A DNA stretch of 64,000 nucleotides from an uncultured Candidatus Saccharibacteria bacterium (GCA_946414465.1 CAMKOP010000003.1:15162-79161); one strand, 5' to 3'. Positions 387 through 25,072 are shown, counted from the first letter of the stretch. Notes: a model not told the origin generated them from the letters alone. A program made the numbers and translations.

Positions 387-617
387 CAGACCGTAACATT
401 GACGGTTAAGCAAATCCCCTCGCACACCCATAATCTATTATGTGGGTATGGTGATGTTGGCAATCCGACAATGACTACCGACGCCCTAAGGTATCAGTAT
501 TGGGGTGGAAATAACAGGGGTTGGCATAACTTTTTGACGCAAAAAACTGGTGGCGGAGAGGCTCACGAGAATATGCCTCCGTATTTAACAGTTTATATGT
601 GGCGTAGGGTTAGCTAG
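387..617 (+). other. Silent tail-fibre C-terminal cassette B (tail-collar type)
   Basis: Reads QTVTLTVKQIPSHTHNL...GGGEAHENMPPYLTVYMWRRVS*, paralogous to the last ~76 aa of the fibre. No RBS. Its 3' end overlaps the fibre stop by 8 nt. Confidence 0.7.
388..404 (+). repeat. Candidate crossover site (cassette B), left arm of a perfect 17-bp inverted repeat
   Basis: AGACCGTAACATTGACG is the exact reverse complement of 823-839. Confidence 0.65.
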
Positions 618-2775
618 TGCGTCTCCACATATAACAAGTTAGATATGGCTGAAGGTTGTTGTGGGCTTTGCCACCACCTGCTGGTGCTGTTTTATTTCCC
701 CAACCACTCGTATTATTTGCACCGTTCGTAAGTAAGGTTTGCCAGTTGCTACCACCGTTTTGACCCTTAACATCGTTATTGATGTGTGCCGAAAGGTGTT
801 GATGGCTTGGAATTTGCTCAAGCGTCAATGTTACGGTCTTACTACCTCCACTCTTATTTGACGCATTAAAATCTGTATCATTCGTATCGACACCGACAGG
901 CACTTTACCAGCACCCCACGGCTGCCATGTTCCACCAAGAAATGTTTGTGGCGAAACATTATTCACGCTCATGTAGATTGAGCCTACTGGGTAAACATAA
1001 GTCAGCAAGTCGCTCTTAGAGATGAGCTTTGCTGTATTATGTGCATACACACTACCAGAGGAGATTATGTCTCCCTCGACCTCAAGTTGACCGTTATTTT
1101 GCCCTTTGTCAACTTGAGGCTTCCTACCGACCGAACATCTGCCATCTTCACCAATAAAGAACTTAGGGATGCCGACAGTAAGAACTAAGTCAATAGTAGT
1201 TGAACTAAATGCGTCAGTCGCTTTAACTTGAATATCCCATTGATAATTATTATCGAGTGTAATTGCGTAGTCTTGAATAGACCAGTTGTTTCCAGATGGC
1301 GTATTTGGTCTTGTTTGCCAATTTCCCCAGTTGGATTCTGATGATTTTTTGGTTCGAAATTGAACAGTAAGTGTATTTTTCGTTGCGTTGTTTACGATGA
1401 TTGGAGCGTAAGTACCGTGGATTTTTAAGGTCGTCTCGGATTCAAATCCATTAGTTCTTTCCGCACTAGCAACGACTGTCGGTGCAGACCATGGGTATAC
1501 CGTCACATCTTTAGAGACAGCTGTAGATAGCGATAATTCGTCTACGGCAGATACTTTTAATGCGAGCGTGCCGTTCTGGCTTGGTGCTAATAATGTTTGA
1601 GATACCGCACTAGACGATGAATAGCCGAGCGTATAAGTGCTACCACTAAATGAAATTGCGTAGTTAGAGATTGCGACATTATCATTACCTGTAGCCTTAT
1701 CACTTGTAGAGACTGTGACTACTGGAGTTGATTGCCCCTGAATTAATGCATGAGAGTCACCAGTCAAAGCAATAGCATCAGCGTTCGTGTCGGCATAATC
1801 AAAGTTACTAAAATTTGGCGAGATGTGTGTGGTTTTAGTTGTGAAGGTTGTCGAAATGACCATTGAATCACCTGCCGTAGTAGTAAGTTTGGCTTGCAAA
1901 ATCACGCTTTTATCGGTAGGTATTCCTGAAGCTGTGAATGTTCCGGATGAAGTTGTTATCGTACCCGCAGATGTCCATGCTGTATATGTCGTACCGCCAT
2001 CGGTTGAATATCTATAATTGAGTGTTCTCGCCAAAGCACCACCATCAGATTGACGAGTCCAATCAATTACTGCATTGACGGTATTATATGTTTTATATGT
2101 CTGGCTAAATAATGACAATGTCGAGAGTGGGGGACATGGTGTCGTGAATGTTCCGGCTACCGTACTGATGTTTCTTTGAGTGTTATTTGCATATGCACCA
2201 TAGTGGTAAGTAGTATTGCCAGTAATCGTAAGAGCTGTAGAACCTTGGCTTGAGCTATTATCGACAGTTAGTTCTGCCGATGTAACATTTGAAGCCTTGG
2301 CGTAGCGATAAGGGTTACCATATGTACTACTACCGAGAATTGCCGCCTCGATATAGCGACCATTCGTAGAGCCTGGAGTACCGTAAGATGATATGGAAAC
2401 ATTAAATACTGCAGAATTGTATGTTTTACTCTTAATTGAAACCGACAATCCAGTAGGATTAGAGTACCCACTTGGAATATAGCCTGTGCCAGAATAATTG
2501 ACAGTACCAGAATACCAAGGACAAGTATAGGAAACTGTCCTATTGCCAGCCGGTAATGAGCCAGTCCATAAAGTACAGTTTCCAGAAACCGTTTTCTGTC
2601 CAAGGTTTGTTCCATTAACAGTAAAATTATTGAAATAGACATAGATACTAGCACCAGGCTTAAGCTCAAAAATAACTCTAGAGCTACGACTTTCACCGGT
2701 AGAGGCGTCATCGTATTGCAATCTAGTATAGCCATATCCACCTGTATCGATTGATGCTACTGTTACCCAACTCAT
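610..2775 (-). CDS. Phage tail fibre / receptor-binding protein with tail-collar C-terminal domain
   Basis: 721 aa, Ser/Thr/Asn/Gly-rich beta-type sequence. The C-terminus ...TLEQIPSHQH...GGGKAHNNLQPYL.. matches the phage tail collar domain pattern. Confidence 0.85.
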   Translation of the reverse strand: MSWVTVASIDTGGYGYTRLQYDDASTGESRSSRVIFELKPGASIYVYFNNFTVNGTNLGQKTVSGNCTLWTGSLPAGNRTVSYTCPWYSGTVNYSGTGYIPSGYSNPTGLSVSIKSKTYNSAVFNVSISSYGTPGSTNGRYIEAAILGSSTYGNPYRYAKASNVTSAELTVDNSSSQGSTALTITGNTTYHYGAYANNTQRNISTVAGTFTTPCPPLSTLSLFSQTYKTYNTVNAVIDWTRQSDGGALARTLNYRYSTDGGTTYTAWTSAGTITTSSGTFTASGIPTDKSVILQAKLTTTAGDSMVISTTFTTKTTHISPNFSNFDYADTNADAIALTGDSHALIQGQSTPVVTVSTSDKATGNDNVAISNYAISFSGSTYTLGYSSSSAVSQTLLAPSQNGTLALKVSAVDELSLSTAVSKDVTVYPWSAPTVVASAERTNGFESETTLKIHGTYAPIIVNNATKNTLTVQFRTKKSSESNWGNWQTRPNTPSGNNWSIQDYAITLDNNYQWDIQVKATDAFSSTTIDLVLTVGIPKFFIGEDGRCSVGRKPQVDKGQNNGQLEVEGDIISSGSVYAHNTAKLISKSDLLTYVYPVGSIYMSVNNVSPQTFLGGTWQPWGAGKVPVGVDTNDTDFNASNKSGGSKTVTLTLEQIPSHQHLSAHINNDVKGQNGGSNWQTLLTNGANNTSGWGNKTAPAGGGKAHNNLQPYLTCYMWRRTS
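823..840 (-). repeat. Candidate crossover site inside the expressed tail-fibre gene
   Basis: The minus-strand sense AAGACCGTAACATTGACG encodes K-T-V-T-L-T at the start of the variable tail-collar C-terminus. Confidence 0.65.
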
Positions 2776-2777
2776 TT

Positions 2778-4733
2778 TTACTCCTTTGGTACGAACGCCC
2801 AGCCATCAGACTGTGGCACTATCTTTAGAGGTGGCATATCTATCTCGTTTTCGGCAGAAATACTTTTAGTATGAACACCATCATTGTTAATAAAGCTACT
2901 CTCGGAATTGCTATCGAATATAATTAGTCCTTGCGAGTCAAGCTTGCTGTATGCTCCATGGAGATTTGAGTTCGTAATCTTTACGCCAGTAGTATCAATA
3001 GCTACTTGTGTATTTGCAAACTCGCCATTGGCTTGAGACCAATTCGAACGATAATTGCCGACAGCTAACATCATATCTGTAATTGAGAACTCAGAATCGG
3101 ATGAGCCAAACACCTCGATTGTTAATTGCGTAGACATCGGCAATATGCCCTCGATACTGAAATCTTCCCAAGTTGACGATTCGCCATTATCTAGACTAAT
3201 CTCCCAAACTCCGTGTTCGGTACCGTCAGTAATTCTTACATAACATGTACCAGTTGCAGTCTTCTTTATGCGACAAGAAAAGGAGTAGTATATCTTCGAA
3301 CTTTCTGAAATAGAAGAGTCGTCAGCACTAACTGCTACTCTTTGAATTGCTGTCTTTCCGATTAACGATATAGCTTGTCCAGAAAGTGAGCCATAGACCG
3401 TAGCTTCAGCAGATGGTTGAACGATTAAATCACCAGCTTGCGAGAAGTTCCAATAATCTGGTAGTTGAGTATCGGAATTAATCGAGTACATGGCAGAGTT
3501 CTTGATAAGGTTATTACCGCCAGAATTTTGTACAGATGTCACGACATTATTGATTGTTTGATGAATCTCCGTATAGTTATCGTTTACTTGACCTTCGAGA
3601 GATGTCATCTCTTGGACGATAGACTGAATCTCTTGATTCTGTTTGTCGACTTTAATCTGAGTATTATAGATAGTCTTCGTTATGCCGCCAGCCAATGCGT
3701 AATCTGTCTGGGTTTCTGTCGGCGTCACACCTTTAATTGTTTCCTTAATGCCGCCATCAACAGTAAGTTTGATGTCTGTAATTATTACATCCCAAGAGTT
3801 GTTGCCATCTGTAATCGTAATCATATCGCCAATTTCATACCAACCATGACCTTCCGTATCAGCTTCAAATGGATACCATTCGAAGCCATCAACTGCATCA
3901 AGAATAGGTTGAGCAAGCAACTCCCTATCATCGTCAAGAATCTCATTATTTGCAAGCTTTAATTCGGTTAATCCGTGTAGCTCGACACTTTCGTTATCAA
4001 CTACGGCGATGTTGTCTTCTTGTGGAGTACGAGCAAGTACGACGCTGTTTACAGGACCATATTTGGGCTTAATTGAATATTTCTTGAGATTATCATATGT
4101 CAGAATCTCAGATGACTCCAATGGTGGAGCTATTACTCTTAAAGTATCCGTAATGCCATCAATTAAGATAAGTGAAGCAGTAGCTCCAGCTATCTCGGAA
4201 AGAATATCACGATAGGTAATATCATTGATTCGAGCATATAAGTCTTCAGCAATCATATAACTACCATTAGTCAGAGACCGTACGTCGTACACGAGATTGT
4301 ATTTAGCGACAATCTGTGCAACTAGGTTCTCGACGGTGGTAGGAAATGTAATATTCGAGTCATATTCCTGAGTTGCCATCTGACCGAGCTTATCGTAAGC
4401 CGAGAAGATAGTGAATCCTTTCTCGATGTCTGATTTTTGCTCATAAATCTTAAAGTTGCCGAGATAACAATCTTCCCATAAGTCTTGCACGGAGTCGGTG
4501 CAAACACTCATAGTAACACCAACGGTTTCGCCGACAAGATTATACTCGTTGCCAAGCAGCTTGAATGTCAGAGCCTTAGTTGCAGAACGAAAATAATACC
4601 CAGCCGATTCGACCGTAAATGACATGAGACTGTCGGCAGACGAATAAGATTCCTGCTCACCAACAATAGTGGCTTTAATAACCTTCACAGGCTCACCCAT
4701 GGCTTGTTTGAATGCTTGCGATACCTCAATCAT
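2778..4733 (-). CDS. Phage tail tip / Tal-like (prophage tail endopeptidase family-like) structural protein
   Basis: 651 aa, immediately upstream of the fibre. The N-terminal half resembles siphophage tail-associated proteins, and the central part is coiled-coil-like. Assignment is from recalled family patterns only. Confidence 0.65.
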   Translation of the reverse strand: MIEVSQAFKQAMGEPVKVIKATIVGEQESYSSADSLMSFTVESAGYYFRSATKALTFKLLGNEYNLVGETVGVTMSVCTDSVQDLWEDCYLGNFKIYEQKSDIEKGFTIFSAYDKLGQMATQEYDSNITFPTTVENLVAQIVAKYNLVYDVRSLTNGSYMIAEDLYARINDITYRDILSEIAGATASLILIDGITDTLRVIAPPLESSEILTYDNLKKYSIKPKYGPVNSVVLARTPQEDNIAVVDNESVELHGLTELKLANNEILDDDRELLAQPILDAVDGFEWYPFEADTEGHGWYEIGDMITITDGNNSWDVIITDIKLTVDGGIKETIKGVTPTETQTDYALAGGITKTIYNTQIKVDKQNQEIQSIVQEMTSLEGQVNDNYTEIHQTINNVVTSVQNSGGNNLIKNSAMYSINSDTQLPDYWNFSQAGDLIVQPSAEATVYGSLSGQAISLIGKTAIQRVAVSADDSSISESSKIYYSFSCRIKKTATGTCYVRITDGTEHGVWEISLDNGESSTWEDFSIEGILPMSTQLTIEVFGSSDSEFSITDMMLAVGNYRSNWSQANGEFANTQVAIDTTGVKITNSNLHGAYSKLDSQGLIIFDSNSESSFINNDGVHTKSISAENEIDMPPLKIVPQSDGWAFVPKE

Positions 4734-6028: not shown

Positions 6029-6242
6029 CTGATTTCTCCTTATCTTGATTGTTCTTTTGGTTCGTTACACCTAAGAAGTAGATATTAATGCCACCAGAGA
6101 AAAGAAGAGCAGTTTGCGTGAGTTGTTTAGCGACCTCTTCGAATCCCCAAGTCGAACCGAGACCTTGTACAATGAATGCTGCAAAAGATAAAAGACCTAC
6201 GGCGATTGATAATTGTCTTGTTGTTTTCTTTTTTAGTTTCAT
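6018..6242 (-). CDS. Holin-like small membrane protein
   Basis: 74 aa with two predicted TM helices and a charged C-terminal tail, directly upstream of the lysin. Confidence 0.5.
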   Translation of the reverse strand: MKLKKKTTRQLSIAVGLLSFAAFIVQGLGSTWGFEEVAKQLTQTALLFSGGINIYFLGVTNQKNNQDKEKSGDE

Positions 6243-10499: not shown

Positions 10500-11647
10500 A
10501 ACAACTCCCCAAGAATTGCAACAAGGACATCAACTACGATTGAATTGCCAGCTTGCTTGTATAGTTGTGCATTTGAAATGCCAATAGCTTGTGCCTTTTC
10601 TATATCCGAATCATCGAATCCCATCAATCTCCAACATTCTTTTGGCGTTAGCTTGCGAATACGAACATTAGGAGGTAATGTAGCATAACCAAGGCAATCT
10701 GGCCTCGTTGTTAATGTTGGCATAACTCCGTTATTACTTTCGATATATTTATCAAGAGTGCTTCGTTGCTCGCTCGTAGTATACGAATGATTAATAATCT
10801 CACCACCTTTCACCACGCCATCTTTGACCAGTTTATTGCATAAATTAGTCTTTAGATTCACCTTGATGAAATTATCTGTCGGTCTTTGACCTGGTGCAGT
10901 AGTAATGGAATTAGCTCTATCTTGGTCTTTGCGATTAATATTTGCCAGGAATCGTTCTTTGCGTGGGAACTTGCTTGGCTTCTGGTTTACTCCCATAAAA
11001 TAATTCATCATGTTTTCAGAGATAAAATATTTTTCATCTACTTCGTCTTCAAGCATATCTTTGAGTTTTTTCTTTAACTCTCTTGGTTTTGGAAAATCGA
11101 AGGCATTGAAATTGTTATATTTCCTATCCCAGACATCTTCACGAATACTTACAGTAAATACACGCTCACGGTTTTGCGGAATGCCATAATCTTTCGCATT
11201 TAATACTTGAAATGAACTGACATAGCCAAGTTGTCTCATCGATTCAATGTAGGCATCAAAGTTGTGGCGATGTTTTTTAGAAAGCAGATTTTTAACATTC
11301 TCCCAAATCACAAATTTAGGATGAAGCTTGTCGACGATTCGCAATGTCTCATACATCAAGCTTGAACGAGTACCACTACCTTCATCGCCGCCAGCTTGTC
11401 TGCCAGCGACGGAAAAGTCCTGACATGGCGAGCCGTGCATAATAAGGTCTACATCAACATCTTTATCCCATTTTGTAATATCTTGTGGCTCAAAATTTGT
11501 TCCATGAATGGCATTGAAACTTTTAATCGCATACTTATCAATCTCGACTGCATCAACTATCATATGTGGTATCAGTAAACGGTCTAGGGCTTTCGAGCAA
11601 GCACCAATTCCCGCAAATAATTCAAGGACTTTCAAGTGCTCATTCAT
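10493..11647 (-). CDS. Phage DNA (cytosine-5)-methyltransferase (no cognate nuclease apparent)
   Basis: Motifs LELFAGIGA, GSPCQDFSVAG, ENV, QNRER, GNSIVV. Confidence 0.92.
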   Translation of the reverse strand: MNEHLKVLELFAGIGACSKALDRLLIPHMIVDAVEIDKYAIKSFNAIHGTNFEPQDITKWDKDVDVDLIMHGSPCQDFSVAGRQAGGDEGSGTRSSLMYETLRIVDKLHPKFVIWENVKNLLSKKHRHNFDAYIESMRQLGYVSSFQVLNAKDYGIPQNRERVFTVSIREDVWDRKYNNFNAFDFPKPRELKKKLKDMLEDEVDEKYFISENMMNYFMGVNQKPSKFPRKERFLANINRKDQDRANSITTAPGQRPTDNFIKVNLKTNLCNKLVKDGVVKGGEIINHSYTTSEQRSTLDKYIESNNGVMPTLTTRPDCLGYATLPPNVRIRKLTPKECWRLMGFDDSDIEKAQAIGISNAQLYKQAGNSIVVDVLVAILGELLC

Positions 11648-18746: not shown

Positions 18747-19574
18747 ATGATTGCAGTGATTGCTATTTTGATTTTTACGGTTTATCTTTGTTTCTTTTTC
18801 CCGTTGGAAGTCAAAGAAAAGAAGGTCGAGGAAAAGTCGCCCAAATATTCTGCTCAGATGAAAAAGCTATGGCAGGTGGCACAGACTTCCATGAAAGAGC
18901 GCAAGCCATTTAGAGCGGAAAAAGCATTGCTTACGATTTTGAAATTTGATGAAAAAAATGCTGCTGCCTATAACAGGCTAGGGATTTTGTATGCTAAGGG
19001 ACAAAAATACGATGAAGCTGTAGAATGCTTTGAGATTGCGCAATCTTTGGATAATAATCCGGCTTCAATCCATAATGCTGGGTTAATCTATCTTGAAACT
19101 GGTGCTTATGAAAAGGCAGCGATGGCGTTTCGTCAGGCAATTGCACTTGAGGGTGATATCCCGGCACGGCATATTGCATTGGCAAAGGCTGAGGAGAAGA
19201 TGGGTAATACTAAAAAAGCAATCGAAGCTCTAGAAAATGCATTTGAATTAGATCCAAAAGTTGCTACTTTGCGTCAAATATTAGCTATTTATGAGGCATC
19301 AGGTGATACAGAAGCGGCTACGGTGACTGCTGCTCGAATTGAGGAGCAAATAACAAAAGACAACGCCATTAAAAAGCGCAAAGCCACAAAGGCTGTTGAA
19401 AAGAGGCCGTTGTCGTCTGGACGAGTCACTATGAGAGGAGATAGAAGGGCTCAACGTACAACTGTTGTTAGACCAAAGAATAATGGTACTGCTGCTCATA
19501 AAACTACACCTACCCCGAAGCCAAAATCAAGTCGTAGAGTCATCAAACCTCATGTAGGTAGAAAACGTATATAG
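18747..19574 (+). CDS. TPR-repeat protein with N-terminal TM and basic C-terminal tail
   Basis: TPR-like AxxYNxLGxxY repeats and a Lys/Arg-rich C-terminus. Confidence 0.7.
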   Translation: MIAVIAILIFTVYLCFFFPLEVKEKKVEEKSPKYSAQMKKLWQVAQTSMKERKPFRAEKALLTILKFDEKNAAAYNRLGILYAKGQKYDEAVECFEIAQSLDNNPASIHNAGLIYLETGAYEKAAMAFRQAIALEGDIPARHIALAKAEEKMGNTKKAIEALENAFELDPKVATLRQILAIYEASGDTEAATVTAARIEEQITKDNAIKKRKATKAVEKRPLSSGRVTMRGDRRAQRTTVVRPKNNGTAAHKTTPTPKPKSSRRVIKPHVGRKRI

Positions 19575-19609
19575 AAAATATCTGACCGAGGGGGGGTCAG
19601 ATATTTTCT
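19573..19609. terminator. Bidirectional terminator
   Basis: 15-bp stem AGAAAATATCTGACC / GGTCAGATATTTTCT with a 7-nt G-rich loop (GAGGGGG). Confidence 0.75.
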
Positions 19610-19953
19610 ATGGTGCACCCTAGTGAAAGAAGTTGCAACTATGCTGAAGGAGGACTTGATGGCCGAAAATTGTCCATCTTACCTCTATTTCTTTCATTAA
19701 ATGTGCGTAATTAGATTATGACACACTTATTATAAAAAATCACCTAAATTTTTGTGGTCTGAAATAAGGCAAAAAAGTACGCTCAAAATCATATATATTG
19801 TTTGCAAAAGTACTAGGGGGCCATTCCCGCTATATTTTTTGTCTGATTCTTAATGGTCGGGACAGTCCCCCCCAGAGACTCCGATTTTAACCCCTGCGTA
19901 GCTAGGGGTTTATTTGGGGTAATACGGACTTAACTGAATAGATCGGAATACTG

Positions 19954-19985
19954 AAAAAAAGCCCCCGACTCTTACCGTCGGAGGC
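19954..19985 (-). terminator. Rho-independent terminator (minus)
   Basis: CCTCCGAC-ggtaaga-GTCGGGGG (one G-U pair) followed by CTTTTTTT on the minus strand. Confidence 0.7.
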
Positions 19986-20506
19986 GAAAGCATAAAATGA
20001 TGTACTTCATTCAGACTTACATGGAGGTTTTCACCTCATTTATTAGATAAAATCCAAATAAATGGGTTTGTGCCAGATCATGTTTGTTCAGGTTTTCCCA
20101 CTCTGATCCAAGGGAACAAGAAGAGTTCCAAGGAAAATAGGAAGGAAATGTCACATCAAAGGCGCACTCCTGCAAAAATCGTAATCCTCAATTGCACTCG
20201 CTGCTTATAGCTTTTACCATAACGGTGCCCCATTAGGAAGAAACAAATCACTCTGGAACGTCTGCCAGAGGTTATTGCCTCTCGGCATTTCGCGCCACGG
20301 GAACCAAACCGCAATTAGCAATCTGGTCGCTAGCTACACAATTCCTACATAAGATACTGCCGTAGGAGGCAGGCCATGCACTCTAGATCCTAAAGATTCT
20401 AGCGTACTCGTCGTGCCCGGGCTTCGAGATGTCCAGTTATTTACCAAGACCCCTTTCTCTGCAAACATTTTGCAAAATGTCAATAGCATTTTTTACCTTT
20501 TAGATT
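19954..20506 (-). ncRNA. Candidate large structured RNA or long 3'UTR downstream of the 919-aa gene (family unknown)
   Basis: ~550 nt with no ORF of 60 aa or more contained within it and visibly higher G+C than the flanks. Has several local hairpins. Capped by a minus-strand terminator at 19954-19985. Confidence 0.35.
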
Positions 20507-23266
20507 TTATCTTGTTCGGTTCCACATTCGTAGCTTTTCATCCACTAACTCATCTTGGTTTTGCATCTGTTGATCTTGCCATTCTTGATATCTCGCCAAA
20601 TCGTCCATCTGGGCACCATTATCAAATAAGATCGGCCAAGCTGGGAACTGGCTAGCCCGCATTTGTCGCCAATTTGCATTTTTCTTATTCCTAGTCCGGA
20701 AAAACATGAAGCTTTCCTGATAAGATTCGTCTAAGGATTTATCAAAGTTATCCCTATCTCTATGTATCACCCTAGTTACTAGTGGAAGTGTCAATGCGCT
20801 AGTTTTTGCATCTTTGAATGCCTCTTGCAAAAATGGCTCAACATTATTGTTCGATAGTATTGGATCACTGGAATCCAATGCCCCACCTTCTTTTATTATC
20901 AAATACATTGCGGCACCTTTATGAGAGAGGCTGTCGGCAATTGCACACCTATTACCTTCATAATTAAATGCAAAGCCCATATATCGATCCGGATTATTTA
21001 TCCCTACTTTCTTATTTCCAAATACAAGCTGAAAAGCTTTTACATTGCTGTCTGGAATATTGTTATCTATGAAGTCATAGTATTTTATCAATGTATCAAT
21101 TTTTTGCAAACCAAAATCAAAGGGTGGAATATCTTCCTGGTTGATGTGGTTGTTATTGTTAGGTAAATTATGAATTGAGCCCTTATTTTTATTGGTCTTT
21201 TTTGGTTGTAAACTCGCAGGTTTTTTTTGTAAAAATTGGTTGTATATGTATACCGCATACTGGTCTCGTAAGTCTTCAAGGTCTGTTCTAGTAAGATTGG
21301 TTATTTGTGCTCTCTTTATTACACGTTGGTTGTCTTTTTCAAGCGATTTGTCTCGCTCTTTGGCTTGTAAATATGCCCAGTAGTCACTTTTACTTCTTTC
21401 GCTTCCGAAATTTGTCAATTTCCGATTCGTGCCGAGGTCATTACTATTTCCTTTGAAGGCCATAATCATAGATTCGAAATATTCTGGATCATTTGAAAAA
21501 ATATTATCATAATACCAATTCGCTTCATCAGAATACTCGCCATTGCGAGTCTTTATTGTATTTAGAAAGCCAGTAAAAGCTAATCTAGCAATCGTTTCAT
21601 CAGTAAAATCTAGCCCAATCTTCGCTTCATTGTCTATATACTCCTGCGTTTCAAAGATTTGAGTTAAATCTATATTCCTATTGCCGTTCTGGGCAACACC
21701 TTGCTCGAGCCGCATCTTTAAACCGTCTCGGATCGCTTTCCTGTAATCAACGTCTATTTCCAAAGGACTATTTGGCCTATTGGTATCCATATACTCAAAT
21801 AACAAACGAGAAAAAGATTCAGGGTCGTCACGTTCAGAAATAAAATGTTTAATTATCGTGTCGCCATAATCTATTTTCGTGACATCAAGTCGGCGGAGTA
21901 AATATTCAAAATCGAAAGATCTCTGAGCGTTTAAGACGCTGTTAGCCATATAATCTTCTGTGAATTGACGATAGTCGTCTTTTTTCTTCTCCACGTATTC
22001 TGAGTTATTGTTGATGCTCTCTTCGATTTGGCTGGCAGCATTTTTTAATCTATCTAATGCCACATGAGTAACTTCTGGATCAAGGATTCTTTCATTAGTC
22101 CATTCGTCTAGCTCAAGCTTCCTCTTATAATAAGGCACATCATATTTCACACGTAACTCATCTTGATCTCCTTTTTTGTATCGGAATGTGAAGTCTGGAT
22201 CATCCATCATTGTGTTTATCTTGTTGTTTAGGTCGAAGTAGCTTGCAATTTCTTTCTTGCGGTCATCATCTACTTCTTTTATGCCATCAACGGCAAAGGC
22301 TGTAATCTGTGCTGAATTTTTATCTATACCATTATCTACCAAAACCGTATCTGCCTTTTCTGGATTTTTTACAGTGGTGTTTGGCATAAATAAACCTGAT
22401 CTTATTGCTGTCTTGATAACGGCACGCTGGCGCTTTTCAACCTCATCTTTTGGCAATTCTAAATAATCATCGAATAAACCGCTAAAAATATCGTGGGTGT
22501 ATTCTTTTAGTACACCATTTGCTACTTCGGCGGAACCATTTTGATATTCCCAACTCGGTTTCTTTTCTTCATAATACCATCTTCTGTTAGACTCGTCTTG
22601 CCTAGCATCAAGTATCGCCTGGTCTATAGCCGCGCCCTCTAATTCTTTTTTAGTGATTTGAAGATCGGAATTGTCGTCGATTATTTTATCCGTGTATAGT
22701 TTTTCGTATGCTTCACTAACATATAGTTCGTGTTTATTGTTATTTGGGAGCATTTTTTCATAATAATGATTAATTGTTTTGAGGGATAGTTCACGAGCTT
22801 CATTTACTACGAGATTTCGTTTTTTATCAGAAGGATCGCCATCGCGTATTATACCTTGGTCTAACAGGCGGTTATAAACGTCATTAACAGCGTCATCAGT
22901 CAATATTTGTTTTGCTTTTTGTCTTATCTGCTTCACCGTCGCTGCATCGGTTTCGCGCTGCATTTCTTGCATACGTTTACGCAACTCCCAATTTGATTCC
23001 CCCGGTTGTTTAGGATAAACATCACCAGCTATTGTTCCGTCCCTAGATGTCCCGCGAGGCTGTTCTGCGGACTTCTCGAATCCTGCTTCCTCTACTTTAC
23101 CTTGGGCTTTTTCCGATAATTCTCTACCGACGTACAAGGTTTCATTATTTACGTCAGTAGTCGTATGAGAAGCAATTTGTTCAGCGATTTTGTGGCCTAA
23201 GCTTTGCCATTCGGCACGTTCATCGCTAGTGTTCTCGCCGCTGTTATTTATGTTTTCTCCGCCCAT
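20507..23266 (-). CDS. Large hypothetical protein (919 aa), no recognisable domain
   Basis: Long uninterrupted ORF with a GGAGGT RBS and its own promoter. Highly charged, with no TM or signal peptide. Confidence 0.7.
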   Translation of the reverse strand: MGGENINNSGENTSDERAEWQSLGHKIAEQIASHTTTDVNNETLYVGRELSEKAQGKVEEAGFEKSAEQPRGTSRDGTIAGDVYPKQPGESNWELRKRMQEMQRETDAATVKQIRQKAKQILTDDAVNDVYNRLLDQGIIRDGDPSDKKRNLVVNEARELSLKTINHYYEKMLPNNNKHELYVSEAYEKLYTDKIIDDNSDLQITKKELEGAAIDQAILDARQDESNRRWYYEEKKPSWEYQNGSAEVANGVLKEYTHDIFSGLFDDYLELPKDEVEKRQRAVIKTAIRSGLFMPNTTVKNPEKADTVLVDNGIDKNSAQITAFAVDGIKEVDDDRKKEIASYFDLNNKINTMMDDPDFTFRYKKGDQDELRVKYDVPYYKRKLELDEWTNERILDPEVTHVALDRLKNAASQIEESINNNSEYVEKKKDDYRQFTEDYMANSVLNAQRSFDFEYLLRRLDVTKIDYGDTIIKHFISERDDPESFSRLLFEYMDTNRPNSPLEIDVDYRKAIRDGLKMRLEQGVAQNGNRNIDLTQIFETQEYIDNEAKIGLDFTDETIARLAFTGFLNTIKTRNGEYSDEANWYYDNIFSNDPEYFESMIMAFKGNSNDLGTNRKLTNFGSERSKSDYWAYLQAKERDKSLEKDNQRVIKRAQITNLTRTDLEDLRDQYAVYIYNQFLQKKPASLQPKKTNKNKGSIHNLPNNNNHINQEDIPPFDFGLQKIDTLIKYYDFIDNNIPDSNVKAFQLVFGNKKVGINNPDRYMGFAFNYEGNRCAIADSLSHKGAAMYLIIKEGGALDSSDPILSNNNVEPFLQEAFKDAKTSALTLPLVTRVIHRDRDNFDKSLDESYQESFMFFRTRNKKNANWRQMRASQFPAWPILFDNGAQMDDLARYQEWQDQQMQNQDELVDEKLRMWNRTR

Positions 23267-23305
23267 GTACCTCCTAAAGTGTGAAATAATATAATTCTTA
23301 AGTTA

Positions 23306-23334
23306 ATTCTACTATTATTTTACCGGAATATCAA
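23306..23334 (-). promoter_or_regulatory. Sigma70-like promoter of the 919-aa gene
   Basis: Minus strand TTGATA-17 nt-TAGAAT, about 40 nt upstream of the ATG. Confidence 0.5.
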
Positions 23335-23416
23335 TTGGTTTTTAAAATGAAAAACACCCTGACTACCGCCAGGGATGTTTTTCTGAATAATACTAAACCC
23401 CCCATTGGTGTACCTC

Positions 23417-23851
23417 CTACAGTTGTGCGTCCCAGAACGCATCCACTGAAGGATAGTCCTCGGCCCACATCTCTTCGTAATACCTATTCCACGTATAGTT
23501 ATCGTCTTCCTCTTGCAGATATCCTAAGATTCTCACTGCATCGTACCAATTTGCCGGCCAGTCCCACCAATCAAAGTGTTTTCTGGCTATTTCTCTCCTC
23601 CTGCTATACTCTCTCATTCCGTCCGGAGTAACGTGTGTAATCTTGCGCTTTGGCTCAACTACATATCTTCTCCCGAGCTCTGCCTTAAGAGCATCCTGGA
23701 TTTCCCAGACATCATCTTTAGTCAGATCGGACGGATTGAAGCAACGAAGGCCTACATGCCAGTATTGCCTTACATTTGGCAGAATCGTACTTCTGAAGAT
23801 CTTCTCAACCCATTCGTGTGTAAAACTGTAATTCTTTTCCAATACATTCAC
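23417..23851 (-). CDS. Hypothetical Trp-rich protein (144 aa)
   Basis: GTG start per the ORF track, followed by a terminator hairpin at ~23345-23378. No homology recognised. Confidence 0.45.
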   Translation of the reverse strand: MNVLEKNYSFTHEWVEKIFRSTILPNVRQYWHVGLRCFNPSDLTKDDVWEIQDALKAELGRRYVVEPKRKITHVTPDGMREYSRRREIARKHFDWWDWPANWYDAVRILGYLQEEDDNYTWNRYYEEMWAEDYPSVDAFWDAQL

Positions 23852-24000
23852 CTCTTTTCAGTATTATCACAGATTTAAATTTACTTTTGCGCTCTTACCA
23901 TTTCTGGCAAGTTGGCTTCGCAGTAGCCCATGTAGTCTTAATGTCTACAGGTACATTCTCTCCGAGAAGGGGGCTCATCACCCAATATTTAGTATAGCGT

Positions 24001-24189
24001 TTAATAATCTGACGTATTAAATTTGTTCACAGCAACAAAACCAAGCAGTCCAGTTGCTATTATCGCGAAAGCAAACATAAACGGACTGTCAGCTGCTGCC
24101 TCCCACAGAGCATTGATATCGAAGTCGAAAAACCCCAGCATCATGAATGTGGTAAAGGCTACTATAATGATAGTCTTAAAAATTCTCAT
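24001..24189 (-). CDS. Small membrane protein (62 aa)
   Basis: Two hydrophobic helices, with GGAGGG upstream of the ATG. Confidence 0.4.
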   Translation of the reverse strand: MRIFKTIIIVAFTTFMMLGFFDFDINALWEAAADSPFMFAFAIIATGLLGFVAVNKFNTSDY

Positions 24190-24204
24190 ATATCCCTCCT
24201 TTAG

Positions 24205-24414
24205 CTATTTGGCCCTATTGCCATTATCATCACACAGATGTCCGGTCATAGGCAGTTTTACCTTATTTCCGTCATCATCGCACAGGTATCCGACAAGGAA
24301 GCTCTTAGGATCAGGCTTCTTTATTTCACCTTTCTTTACTGCTTCAGCGAACAACTGTACGATCAGAGCTCTCATTCTTCTCTGCATTTCCATAGCTTCG
24401 TTTTCTCTTGACAT
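24205..24414 (-). CDS. Small hypothetical protein (69 aa) with internal LCDDxGN repeat
   Basis: AAAGGAGAA RBS. Contains GYLCDDDGNKVKLPMTGHLCDDNGN. Confidence 0.4.
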   Translation of the reverse strand: MSRENEAMEMQRRMRALIVQLFAEAVKKGEIKKPDPKSFLVGYLCDDDGNKVKLPMTGHLCDDNGNRAK

Positions 24415-24832: not shown

Positions 24833-24918
24833 TGGTGCTGGAGGTTGGACTCGAACCAACGAAGCGCGAAGCGCGAGAGATTTACAGTCTCTTGTCATTG
24901 CCACTAGACGACTCCAGC
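24833..24918 (-). tRNA. tRNA-Tyr (GTA), long variable arm, CCA encoded
   Basis: Manual cloverleaf: anticodon loop CT-GTA-AA, class II variable arm, T-loop TTCGAGT. Confidence 0.9.
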
Positions 24919-24997
24919 GTATTTAATATTATATATTATTTATTCTATAAAAGCAACCTTTTTACAAAAATATTATTGTATGATACAATTATTCTAC

Positions 24998-25072
<75 letters not shown>

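Follow-up and report, generated by a model that had tools for sequence, protein, structure and literature searches.

Bacterial noncoding RNAs longer than approximately 500 nt that carry dense conserved structure are rare, and about a dozen classes have been described. For RNase P, OLE, ROOL, GOLLD and HEARO, each case that has been studied proved to be functionally unusual. Type I 3'UTR sRNAs such as DapZ and MicL are independently transcribed and have their terminator in common with the mRNA; they are Hfq-dependent, base-pairing regulators of 80-300 nt in Proteobacteria. RNA-only assemblies are formed by ROOL, GOLLD and OLE, and those of the large RNAs ROOL (RF03087) and GOLLD (RF01998) are RNA-only nanocages (PMC12286853). 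The ROOL and GOLLD genes are found in prophages and phages, often beside tRNA islands, and in GOLLD the 3' region is conserved and the 5' region is variable (PMC12286853).

Here we describe the noncoding interval at positions 19612-20506 of a 64,000-nt stretch of DNA from an uncultured Candidatus Saccharibacteria bacterium (GCA_946414465.1, CAMKOP010000003.1:15162-79161), hereafter the window. Comparison of its sequence with related loci makes it likely, with a probability of roughly 0.75, that the interval holds a 5'-truncated copy of a stand-alone large structured ncRNA gene that lies outside Rfam and belongs to a small mammalian-gut clade of Candidatus Saccharibacteria. The preliminary description of this DNA had proposed one unclassified large RNA of ~0.9 kb. 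The idea of a large structured RNA of no known class, encoded on the minus strand from the stop codon of the 919-aa gene to the terminator at 19954-19985, was supported by conservation among contigs, compensatory changes, loop-confined insertions and folding z-scores. The proposed extent was not, as the RNA covers only approximately 520 of the 895 nt and the interval consists of two units.

The interval and its genomic surroundings

The longest open reading frame in 19575-20506 was 51-52 aa, in agreement with the view that this DNA is ORF-free, and the sole nearby ORF of more than 60 aa was found at 20413-20655 on the plus strand. An enrichment in G+C had been attributed to the interval, and this held for the right-hand ~520 nt but not for the full 19612-20506 block. 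The G+C content was 47.6% at 20100-20450 compared to 38.9% on average for the window (99.6th percentile among all 351-nt segments), 44.9% at 19950-20470 (97.9th percentile of the window), and 41.9% across 19612-20506 (86th percentile only). As proposed earlier for the transcript boundaries, the 919-aa ORF stops at 20507 on the minus strand, and the first strong minus-strand terminator lies at 19985-19961 and is followed by a T-run. A perfect 16-bp palindrome reported at 20465-20480 is present in the sequence, where it sits in the spacer of a relic promoter (see below); it is unremarkable, since the window contained four perfect 16-mer palindromes compared to 1.3 ± 1.1 in shuffled sequences. 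Genes converge at ~19600-20100, with the plus strand used on the left and the minus strand on the right. The cumulative GC skew peaks at ~19.9-20.1 kb, and the switch of coding strand is probably the cause.

The 919-aa orphan protein gene occupies 20507-23266 on the minus strand, and the RNA gene follows its homologs. The protein had no match in Pfam, NCBIfam, PADLOC or PHROGs, nor in phage, plasmid and viral collections. Its AF2 model was mostly helical (pLDDT 69), and a Foldseek comparison with the PDB gave a best E of 0.09, with generic helical repeats only and no fold match. No RuvC, HNH or other nuclease domain was found by domain searches. The protein is acidic (pI 5.0, net charge -33), and this acidity does not favor RNA binding. 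Seven close homologs were found, with 30-99% identity, and an exhaustive search gave 48 representatives of the family, which have an invariant N-terminal motif, WQSLGHKIAEQIASHTT. One member of the family occurs in NCBI assembly GCA_016648615.1. An exact look-up of the 919-aa protein of the window gave no entry. The gene belongs to a conserved minus-strand orphan cluster at 20507-24414 that is made up of 69-aa, 62-aa (hydrophobic), 144-aa and 919-aa genes without family matches.

On the left flank of the interval, a TPR gene on the plus strand has its stop at 19574, and the neighbors at the locus are the orphan gene and then the TPR/holB/rluD housekeeping genes. A mobile or tRNA-adjacent setting in the style of ROOL and GOLLD, which had been suggested earlier, was not supported: there were no viral-contig matches and no adjoining phage genes, the nearest tRNAs (24833-25072) are 4.3 kb from the RNA, and phage-like genes are 15 kb from it. 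Phage baseplate/tail-type genes (Gp10_C, DUF859) are present at 610-4733 of the window, where the nearest relatives are Streptococcus prophage genes with ~30% identity. From its gene content, this segment is probably a prophage remnant in the Saccharibacteria genome.

The part of the interval at 19612-19953, referred to here as block 2, is a separate conserved noncoding module located past the RNA terminator in both the window and L002 (homolog loci are given L numbers). It was set apart from the large RNA because it is absent from the L001 locus and is present without the RNA in L018, a bovine sample in which the protein is 30% identical and block 2 lies at 2612-2869, right after the homolog gene. 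At the distant homolog loci L020 and L021, neither the large RNA nor block 2 was present. In L002, block 2 was found at 10784-11103 and, in part, at 2850-2916. Its identity between the window and L002 was 88% compared to only 59.5% for the flanking gene, and it was more alike between these two loci than anything surrounding it. On the minus strand, block 2 contains a TATAAT at 19734-19729, a 12-codon ORF at 19677-19639 that is not conserved, and a hairpin at 19889-19910. This hairpin had been listed among the local structures of the large RNA; it is retained in L002 with an altered loop, but it belongs to block 2, the other unit.

An invariant 31-nt sequence, GCATAGTTGCAACTTCTTTCACTAGGGTGCA, lies at the end of block 2 (19614-19644, minus strand) and is unchanged in L005, at the main L002 site and at the other L002 site (2877-2916). 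A terminator-like hairpin comes after it in the window, in L005 and at the second of the L002 sites, and the main L002 site has a T-run only. A 17-bp hairpin terminator at 19571-19611 is common to the TPR gene on the plus strand and any minus-strand transcript of block 2. A peptide gene in block 2 was ruled out, as ATT replaces ATG in the second copy of L002 and the conservation runs past the stop. A long plus-strand hairpin was ruled out by the deletion of one arm in L002, and a dif-type site for the 31-mer was ruled out by eye, as the sequence lacks dyad symmetry and its two copies are 8 kb from each other. Block 2 had no match in phage, plasmid and viral collections. Block 2 might be a small RNA gene.

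The probable RNA gene and its predicted structure in related loci

The contigs of the close homologs of the 919-aa protein, which come from human and bovine gut metagenomes, were fetched and their downstream DNA was aligned to the window. The organisms were identified as Candidatus Saccharibacteria from the names of cluster mates of the TrpRS of the window and the RpoA of L002. In L001, L002-L004 and L005/L006, where the homolog is 60%, 48% and 99% identical to the 919-aa protein, respectively, the DNA could be aligned from immediately past the stop codon up to the terminator. The short contigs L010 (protein 47%) and L011 (55%) also contain the 5' part of the RNA at their ends. A promoter was located 35-50 nt past the stop codon of the homolog gene. 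In L001, it reads TTGACA-17-TATAAT (12/12 consensus, with TG) and begins 44 nt past the stop codon; in L002, it reads TTGACT-17-TATAAT (11/12 consensus, with TG); and the same promoter boxes are visible in L010 and L011. A promoter of its own, as expected of a stand-alone ncRNA gene, is thus seen in L001, L002, L010 and L011, and in the window copy the -10 box is deleted. The 3' intrinsic terminator expected of such a gene was also found. In the window, it lies at 19954-19985 on the minus strand and consists of GCCUCCGACGGUAAGAGUCGGGGGC followed by U7, with nine pairs, seven of them G-C. The terminator hairpin (GCCUCCGAC...GUCGGGGGC) and the U-run end all copies, and the stem does not vary in L001 and L002. 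The protein mRNA ends at the same hairpin, as there is no other terminator ahead of it. The predicted full-length transcripts are 616 nt in L001 and 690 nt in L002.

The RNA core of the window had 85.7% nucleotide identity to that of L001 compared to 67.0% for the adjacent gene; for L002, the two values were 66.5% and 59.5%. Moreover, the adjacency of gene and RNA is retained though the outer neighbors vary on both sides: Peptidase_M16, an unknown 189-aa gene or TPR downstream, and a Mur ligase or a 144-aa gene upstream. The conserved core and 3' domain contain the invariant blocks GAAGCCYGGGCACGAC, CAGCGAGYGCAAUUGAGGA and AAGUCU, and the variable 5' domain consists of three hairpins, one of which accepts an insertion of ~90 nt. 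No conserved start codon or reading frame was found in the RNA across the homologs compared.

Three contigs, L010 (4146-4301), L011 (3470-3575) and L019 (at its end), terminate inside the RNA region, which fits assembly breaks at sequence common to co-occurring strains. In L019 (protein 35% identical; 2525-2578), only the 3' module of the RNA (hairpin, CAAGUCUGGAUGAAGGUACACC) stands directly after the stop codon, and the contig then ends. This arrangement suggests that the RNA is built of modules or that an older 3' tail received it as an insertion; the region was regarded as modular across the family because the L019 stop codon leads straight into the 3' module. L022 is from the same species as L001, and the apparent split of its homolog gene into 680 aa and 190 aa (6127-6136) is a run of N, a scaffold gap and no frameshift.

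The L001 RNA had a folding energy of -231 kcal/mol and a z-score of -9.27 compared to dinucleotide shuffles (antisense, -7.0). The z-score was -5.94 for the L002 RNA and -2.8 for the window copy, the latter a modest excess over shuffles. In the consensus fold, there were 22-25 G-U pairs per sequence in L001, the window and L005, and 18 in L002; these counts establish that the sense strand of the RNA is that of the 919-aa gene, the minus strand of the window. The structure alignment comprised four sequences, of which three (window-type, L001-type and L002-type) are effectively independent; these three were the only diverged variants of full or near-full length to be collected, besides fragments. 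The RNAalifold consensus contained 168 pairs in 24 helices, with standard pairs in 93% of cells. Both sides had changed in 25 of the 168 pairs compared to 8.5 ± 2.3 in column shuffles, none of which reached 25 (0/500), and when partners were slid by 1-3 columns only 2-5 double-changed pairs were obtained. Covariation among homologous regions, put forward earlier as a check, was thus found as compensatory changes, with moderate support from three effective sequences. The sequences tested had also served to derive the consensus structure, which makes the covariation statistics weak by R-scape standards.

The clearest double changes were seen in the hairpin at 163-192, with the variants CCUGAGGA/UCCUCGGG, CCAAGAGC/GCUCUUGG and GCAGAGA/UCUUGGU, in helices 21-23 near the 3' end, with three apiece, and in the 5' hairpin of L010, where C-G is replaced by U-A. 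The three large insertions of L002 (~90, 51 and 11 nt) fall in hairpin loops or between helices, as do the two small insertions of L001. The hairpin at 20357-20372 on the minus strand (CUGCC-UCCUAC-GGCAG), which had been pointed out from the window alone, is kept across all homologs, with one arm mutated in L005. Predicted long-range helices, for example CUCGAAGCCCG with CAGCGAG-GCAAUUGAG, are invariant, and so there is no covariation in them. The fold is supported in local helices only, and the predicted structure is supported, not proven. The self-complementary GCUAGC (20329-20334, RNA sense) reads ACUAGU in L002, with two changes that leave the self-complementarity intact; it could serve as a kissing contact between RNA molecules, of the kind seen in OLE and GOLLD, or belong to predicted helix 8.

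The truncated allele and alternative explanations

In the window, the body of the large RNA lies at 19954-20471 on the minus strand (nhmmer 20471-19954, E 1.5e-184) and corresponds to approximately nt 85-616 of the L001 RNA. A relic promoter at 20455-20483 on the same strand consists of the -35 box TTGACA (20483-20478), a 17-nt spacer and AGAGAA (20460-20455), the last standing where homologs have TATAAT. The -35 box and spacer (TTGACA TTTTGCAAAATGTTTGC) run directly into AGAGAA and the first core hairpin. The window copy is without the TATAAT and the 5' domain, both of which are present in L001, L002, L010 and L011. The 5' domain is formed by the hairpin GUUGUGAGCC/GGCUUGCAGC, a GGGG/CCCC hairpin and a GUCC/GGAC hairpin, and it is 110 nt long in L001 and about 190 nt in L002. 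No promoter-like site was called at the start of the window RNA, and alternatives read by eye were weak. AAAAU(G/A)U-type sequence is present at each of the two break points, and this suggests that the 5' part was lost by a deletion between two AAAAU-type microhomologies.

The same junction was found in L005 and L006, which are other samples of the same species and ~2% divergent. As the junction is common to these independent assemblies and the window, the truncation is not an assembly error. Of 521 RNA positions, 10 (1.9%) were different between L005 and the window; the adjacent gene differed by 0.8% over its length and by about 1.5% when third codon positions were taken alone. Five of the 10 differences break predicted pairs and none is compensated; these numbers are small, and the pattern fits a relaxed constraint on the window RNA after the deletion. 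The window copy may be read-through-only or decaying, and the odds that it is still functional are about even. If it is functional, its expression would come via read-through from the 919-aa gene, because there is no intervening terminator. By analogy, the truncated allele could also yield the RNA via processing of the mRNA in the style of 3'UTR sRNAs.

The arrangement of boxes, stem and deletion points to the following model. The intact RNA would be transcribed from its own consensus sigma-70-type promoter after the stop of the ~920-aa gene and would end at a strong intrinsic terminator common to the protein mRNA, an independently transcribed layout of the 3'UTR type. It is predicted to fold into a multi-helix architecture of a variable 5' domain, a conserved core and a 3' domain. 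In the window lineage, a deletion would have taken the -10 box and the whole 5' domain, after which the RNA would be made only via read-through from the 919-aa gene. We infer that the RNA may be a folded scaffold with a function in trans, working by itself or together with a protein. The adjacent ~920-aa protein is the obvious but uncertain candidate partner, a link that is proposed from the conserved adjacency. An RNP composed of the RNA and this protein is doubtful as things stand, and an RNA-only assembly would be equally open; the self-complementary loop candidate GCUAGC/ACUAGU would fit a multimer.

A purely long structured 3'UTR of the 919-aa mRNA that acts in cis, for example on stability or termination, is the main rival to a stand-alone RNA gene and had been raised in the preliminary description. 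What stands of that proposal is that at no locus is the RNA set apart from the stop codon by a terminator; moreover, the adjacency to the gene is strictly conserved, and the window allele keeps the body despite the loss of the internal promoter. It is opposed by the consensus-grade promoter that four lineages keep exactly at the start of the structured part, by more distant gene homologs (L018, L020 and L021) that are without such a tail, and by the length of 600-700 nt, which would be extraordinary for a structured cis element. We regard a cis-acting tail as unlikely. Very unlikely, in our judgment, is that the conservation stems from recent horizontal spread or from a function at the DNA level, such as a mobile remnant or a recombination or binding site, and not from a functional RNA. 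The large RNA has diverged substantially (60-67% identity to L002) with its helices kept by double changes, insertions respect the hairpins, and no repeats, inverted termini, integrase or transposase were found around the RNA, nor any phage, plasmid or viral match. These observations have to be set against a modular presence and absence across loci that fits a mobile origin, the far greater likeness of block 2 than of its surroundings between the window and L002, the recurrence of part of block 2 elsewhere in L002, and the breaks of contigs L010, L011 and L019 inside the region.

The size and ornate fold are also what a highly divergent RNase P RNA, tmRNA, ROOL, GOLLD or OLE RNA missed by covariance models might display; candidate-phyla bacteria often have aberrant RNAs, and GAAGCCCGGGC bears what we take to be some short-motif resemblance to CR-I of RNase P. 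However, Rfam 15 models at E ≤ 10 gave chance-level matches only (11-25 bits) on the window (19500-20600) and on the two complete copies (L002 10000-11150 and L001 6850-7600), and ARAGORN found no tmRNA in the window or the homolog loci. Moreover, were the RNA essential, a lineage without its promoter and 5' domain should not have persisted long enough to diverge by 2%, and a disguised known RNA is in our estimate highly improbable. A decayed protein-coding gene, the other alternative named at the outset, is scarcely credible. The interval is indeed ORF-free, near-coding in G+C and beside real genes, but a concatenated six-frame pseudo-protein query of the RNA gave zero matches at E ≤ 10 among 5.8 billion proteins (this query missed even an 82-aa call on L002), and Pfam gave nothing credible on the RNA region, so no protein remnant was found. 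In addition, the lengths of indels among homologs are not divisible by three, substitutions on one side of a helix are paired with substitutions on the other, and there is no conserved start codon or frame.

Comparison with known large RNAs

The proposed stand-alone RNA gene is probably the type of a new, narrowly distributed class of large ncRNA. A scan of the whole window with Rfam 15 at the gathering threshold found six tRNAs only. Membership in the RNase P, tmRNA, SRP, 6S, OLE, ROOL, GOLLD, HEARO or raiA families was rejected, with scores below the gathering threshold, and the same applied to the group I/II intron and T-box covariance models. The lack of RNase P, tmRNA, SRP and 6S signatures noted earlier was thus upheld, as no family was obtained even at E ≤ 10. 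A tmRNA with its tRNA-like domain and tag frame was likewise rejected with ARAGORN. The RNA had no match in IMG/VR, INPHARED and other phage, plasmid and viral collections. The invariant 19-mer CAGCGAGYGCAATTGAGGA was used as a probe to scan the DNA of GTDB representative genomes, JGI metagenomes and IMG/VR; the nine matches were due to chance, with the 19-mer alone in common, and as no further copies of the RNA were found in these collections the family is regarded as very narrow. No description of a large RNA of this kind in Saccharibacteria was found in the literature.

Should the family be real, its presence in Saccharibacteria would make this new class notable, because these epibionts have genomes of ~1 Mb and keep little nonessential DNA. 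That it would be the first large (600-700 nt) ornate ncRNA class of Saccharibacteria and the candidate phyla radiation, forming a folded particle as an OLE-like RNP or an RNA-only multimer, is a tentative suggestion against which the odds still lean. The strict pairing with one orphan protein gene provides a concrete testable hypothesis, and the natural truncated allele in the window is a ready-made comparison, within the limits that the family is very narrow and that the window copy may be defective.

Among the known systems, the HEARO/omega RNA of IscB (RF02033) is comparable as a large structured RNA that adjoins one large protein gene and is co-conserved with it. It differs in that there is no covariance-model match here, the protein is without a nuclease domain or fold match, and there are no transposon ends. 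A guide-RNA/nuclease pair (IscB-HEARO, TnpB-omega RNA or Cas12-tracrRNA) was rejected, as the adjoining protein has no RuvC/HNH domain. With the type I 3'UTR sRNAs, the RNA has in common an internal promoter at the end of the upstream ORF and a single terminator for mRNA and RNA. In contrast to them, it is 600-700 nt long and densely structured, with no obvious seed.

ROOL and GOLLD resemble the RNA in size class (580 to more than 800 nt), in their occurrence in gut- and rumen-type metagenomes and in requiring no known protein partner; as in GOLLD, the RNA is conserved in 3' and variable in 5'. It differs from both in having no covariance-model match, in lying outside prophage and phage contigs and in being limited to a handful of species. 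Membership was rejected on the housekeeping neighbors, the distance of 15 kb to phage-like genes and the lack of an IMG/VR or INPHARED match. Membership in the OLE RNP (OLE RNA, RF01071, with OapA, OapB and OapC) was rejected as well, as there is no adjoining oapA-type membrane gene and the host is not a member of the Firmicutes. There is no covariance-model similarity to OLE, which occurs in anaerobic and extremophilic Firmicutes and not in Saccharibacteria as here, and the neighboring protein here is encoded upstream, soluble, acidic and unrelated to the membrane protein OapA. The likeness to OLE lies in the overall plan: an ornate ncRNA of ~600 nt, encoded by a stand-alone gene beside a conserved protein gene of the same lineage, with a multi-domain fold that carries invariant sequence blocks.
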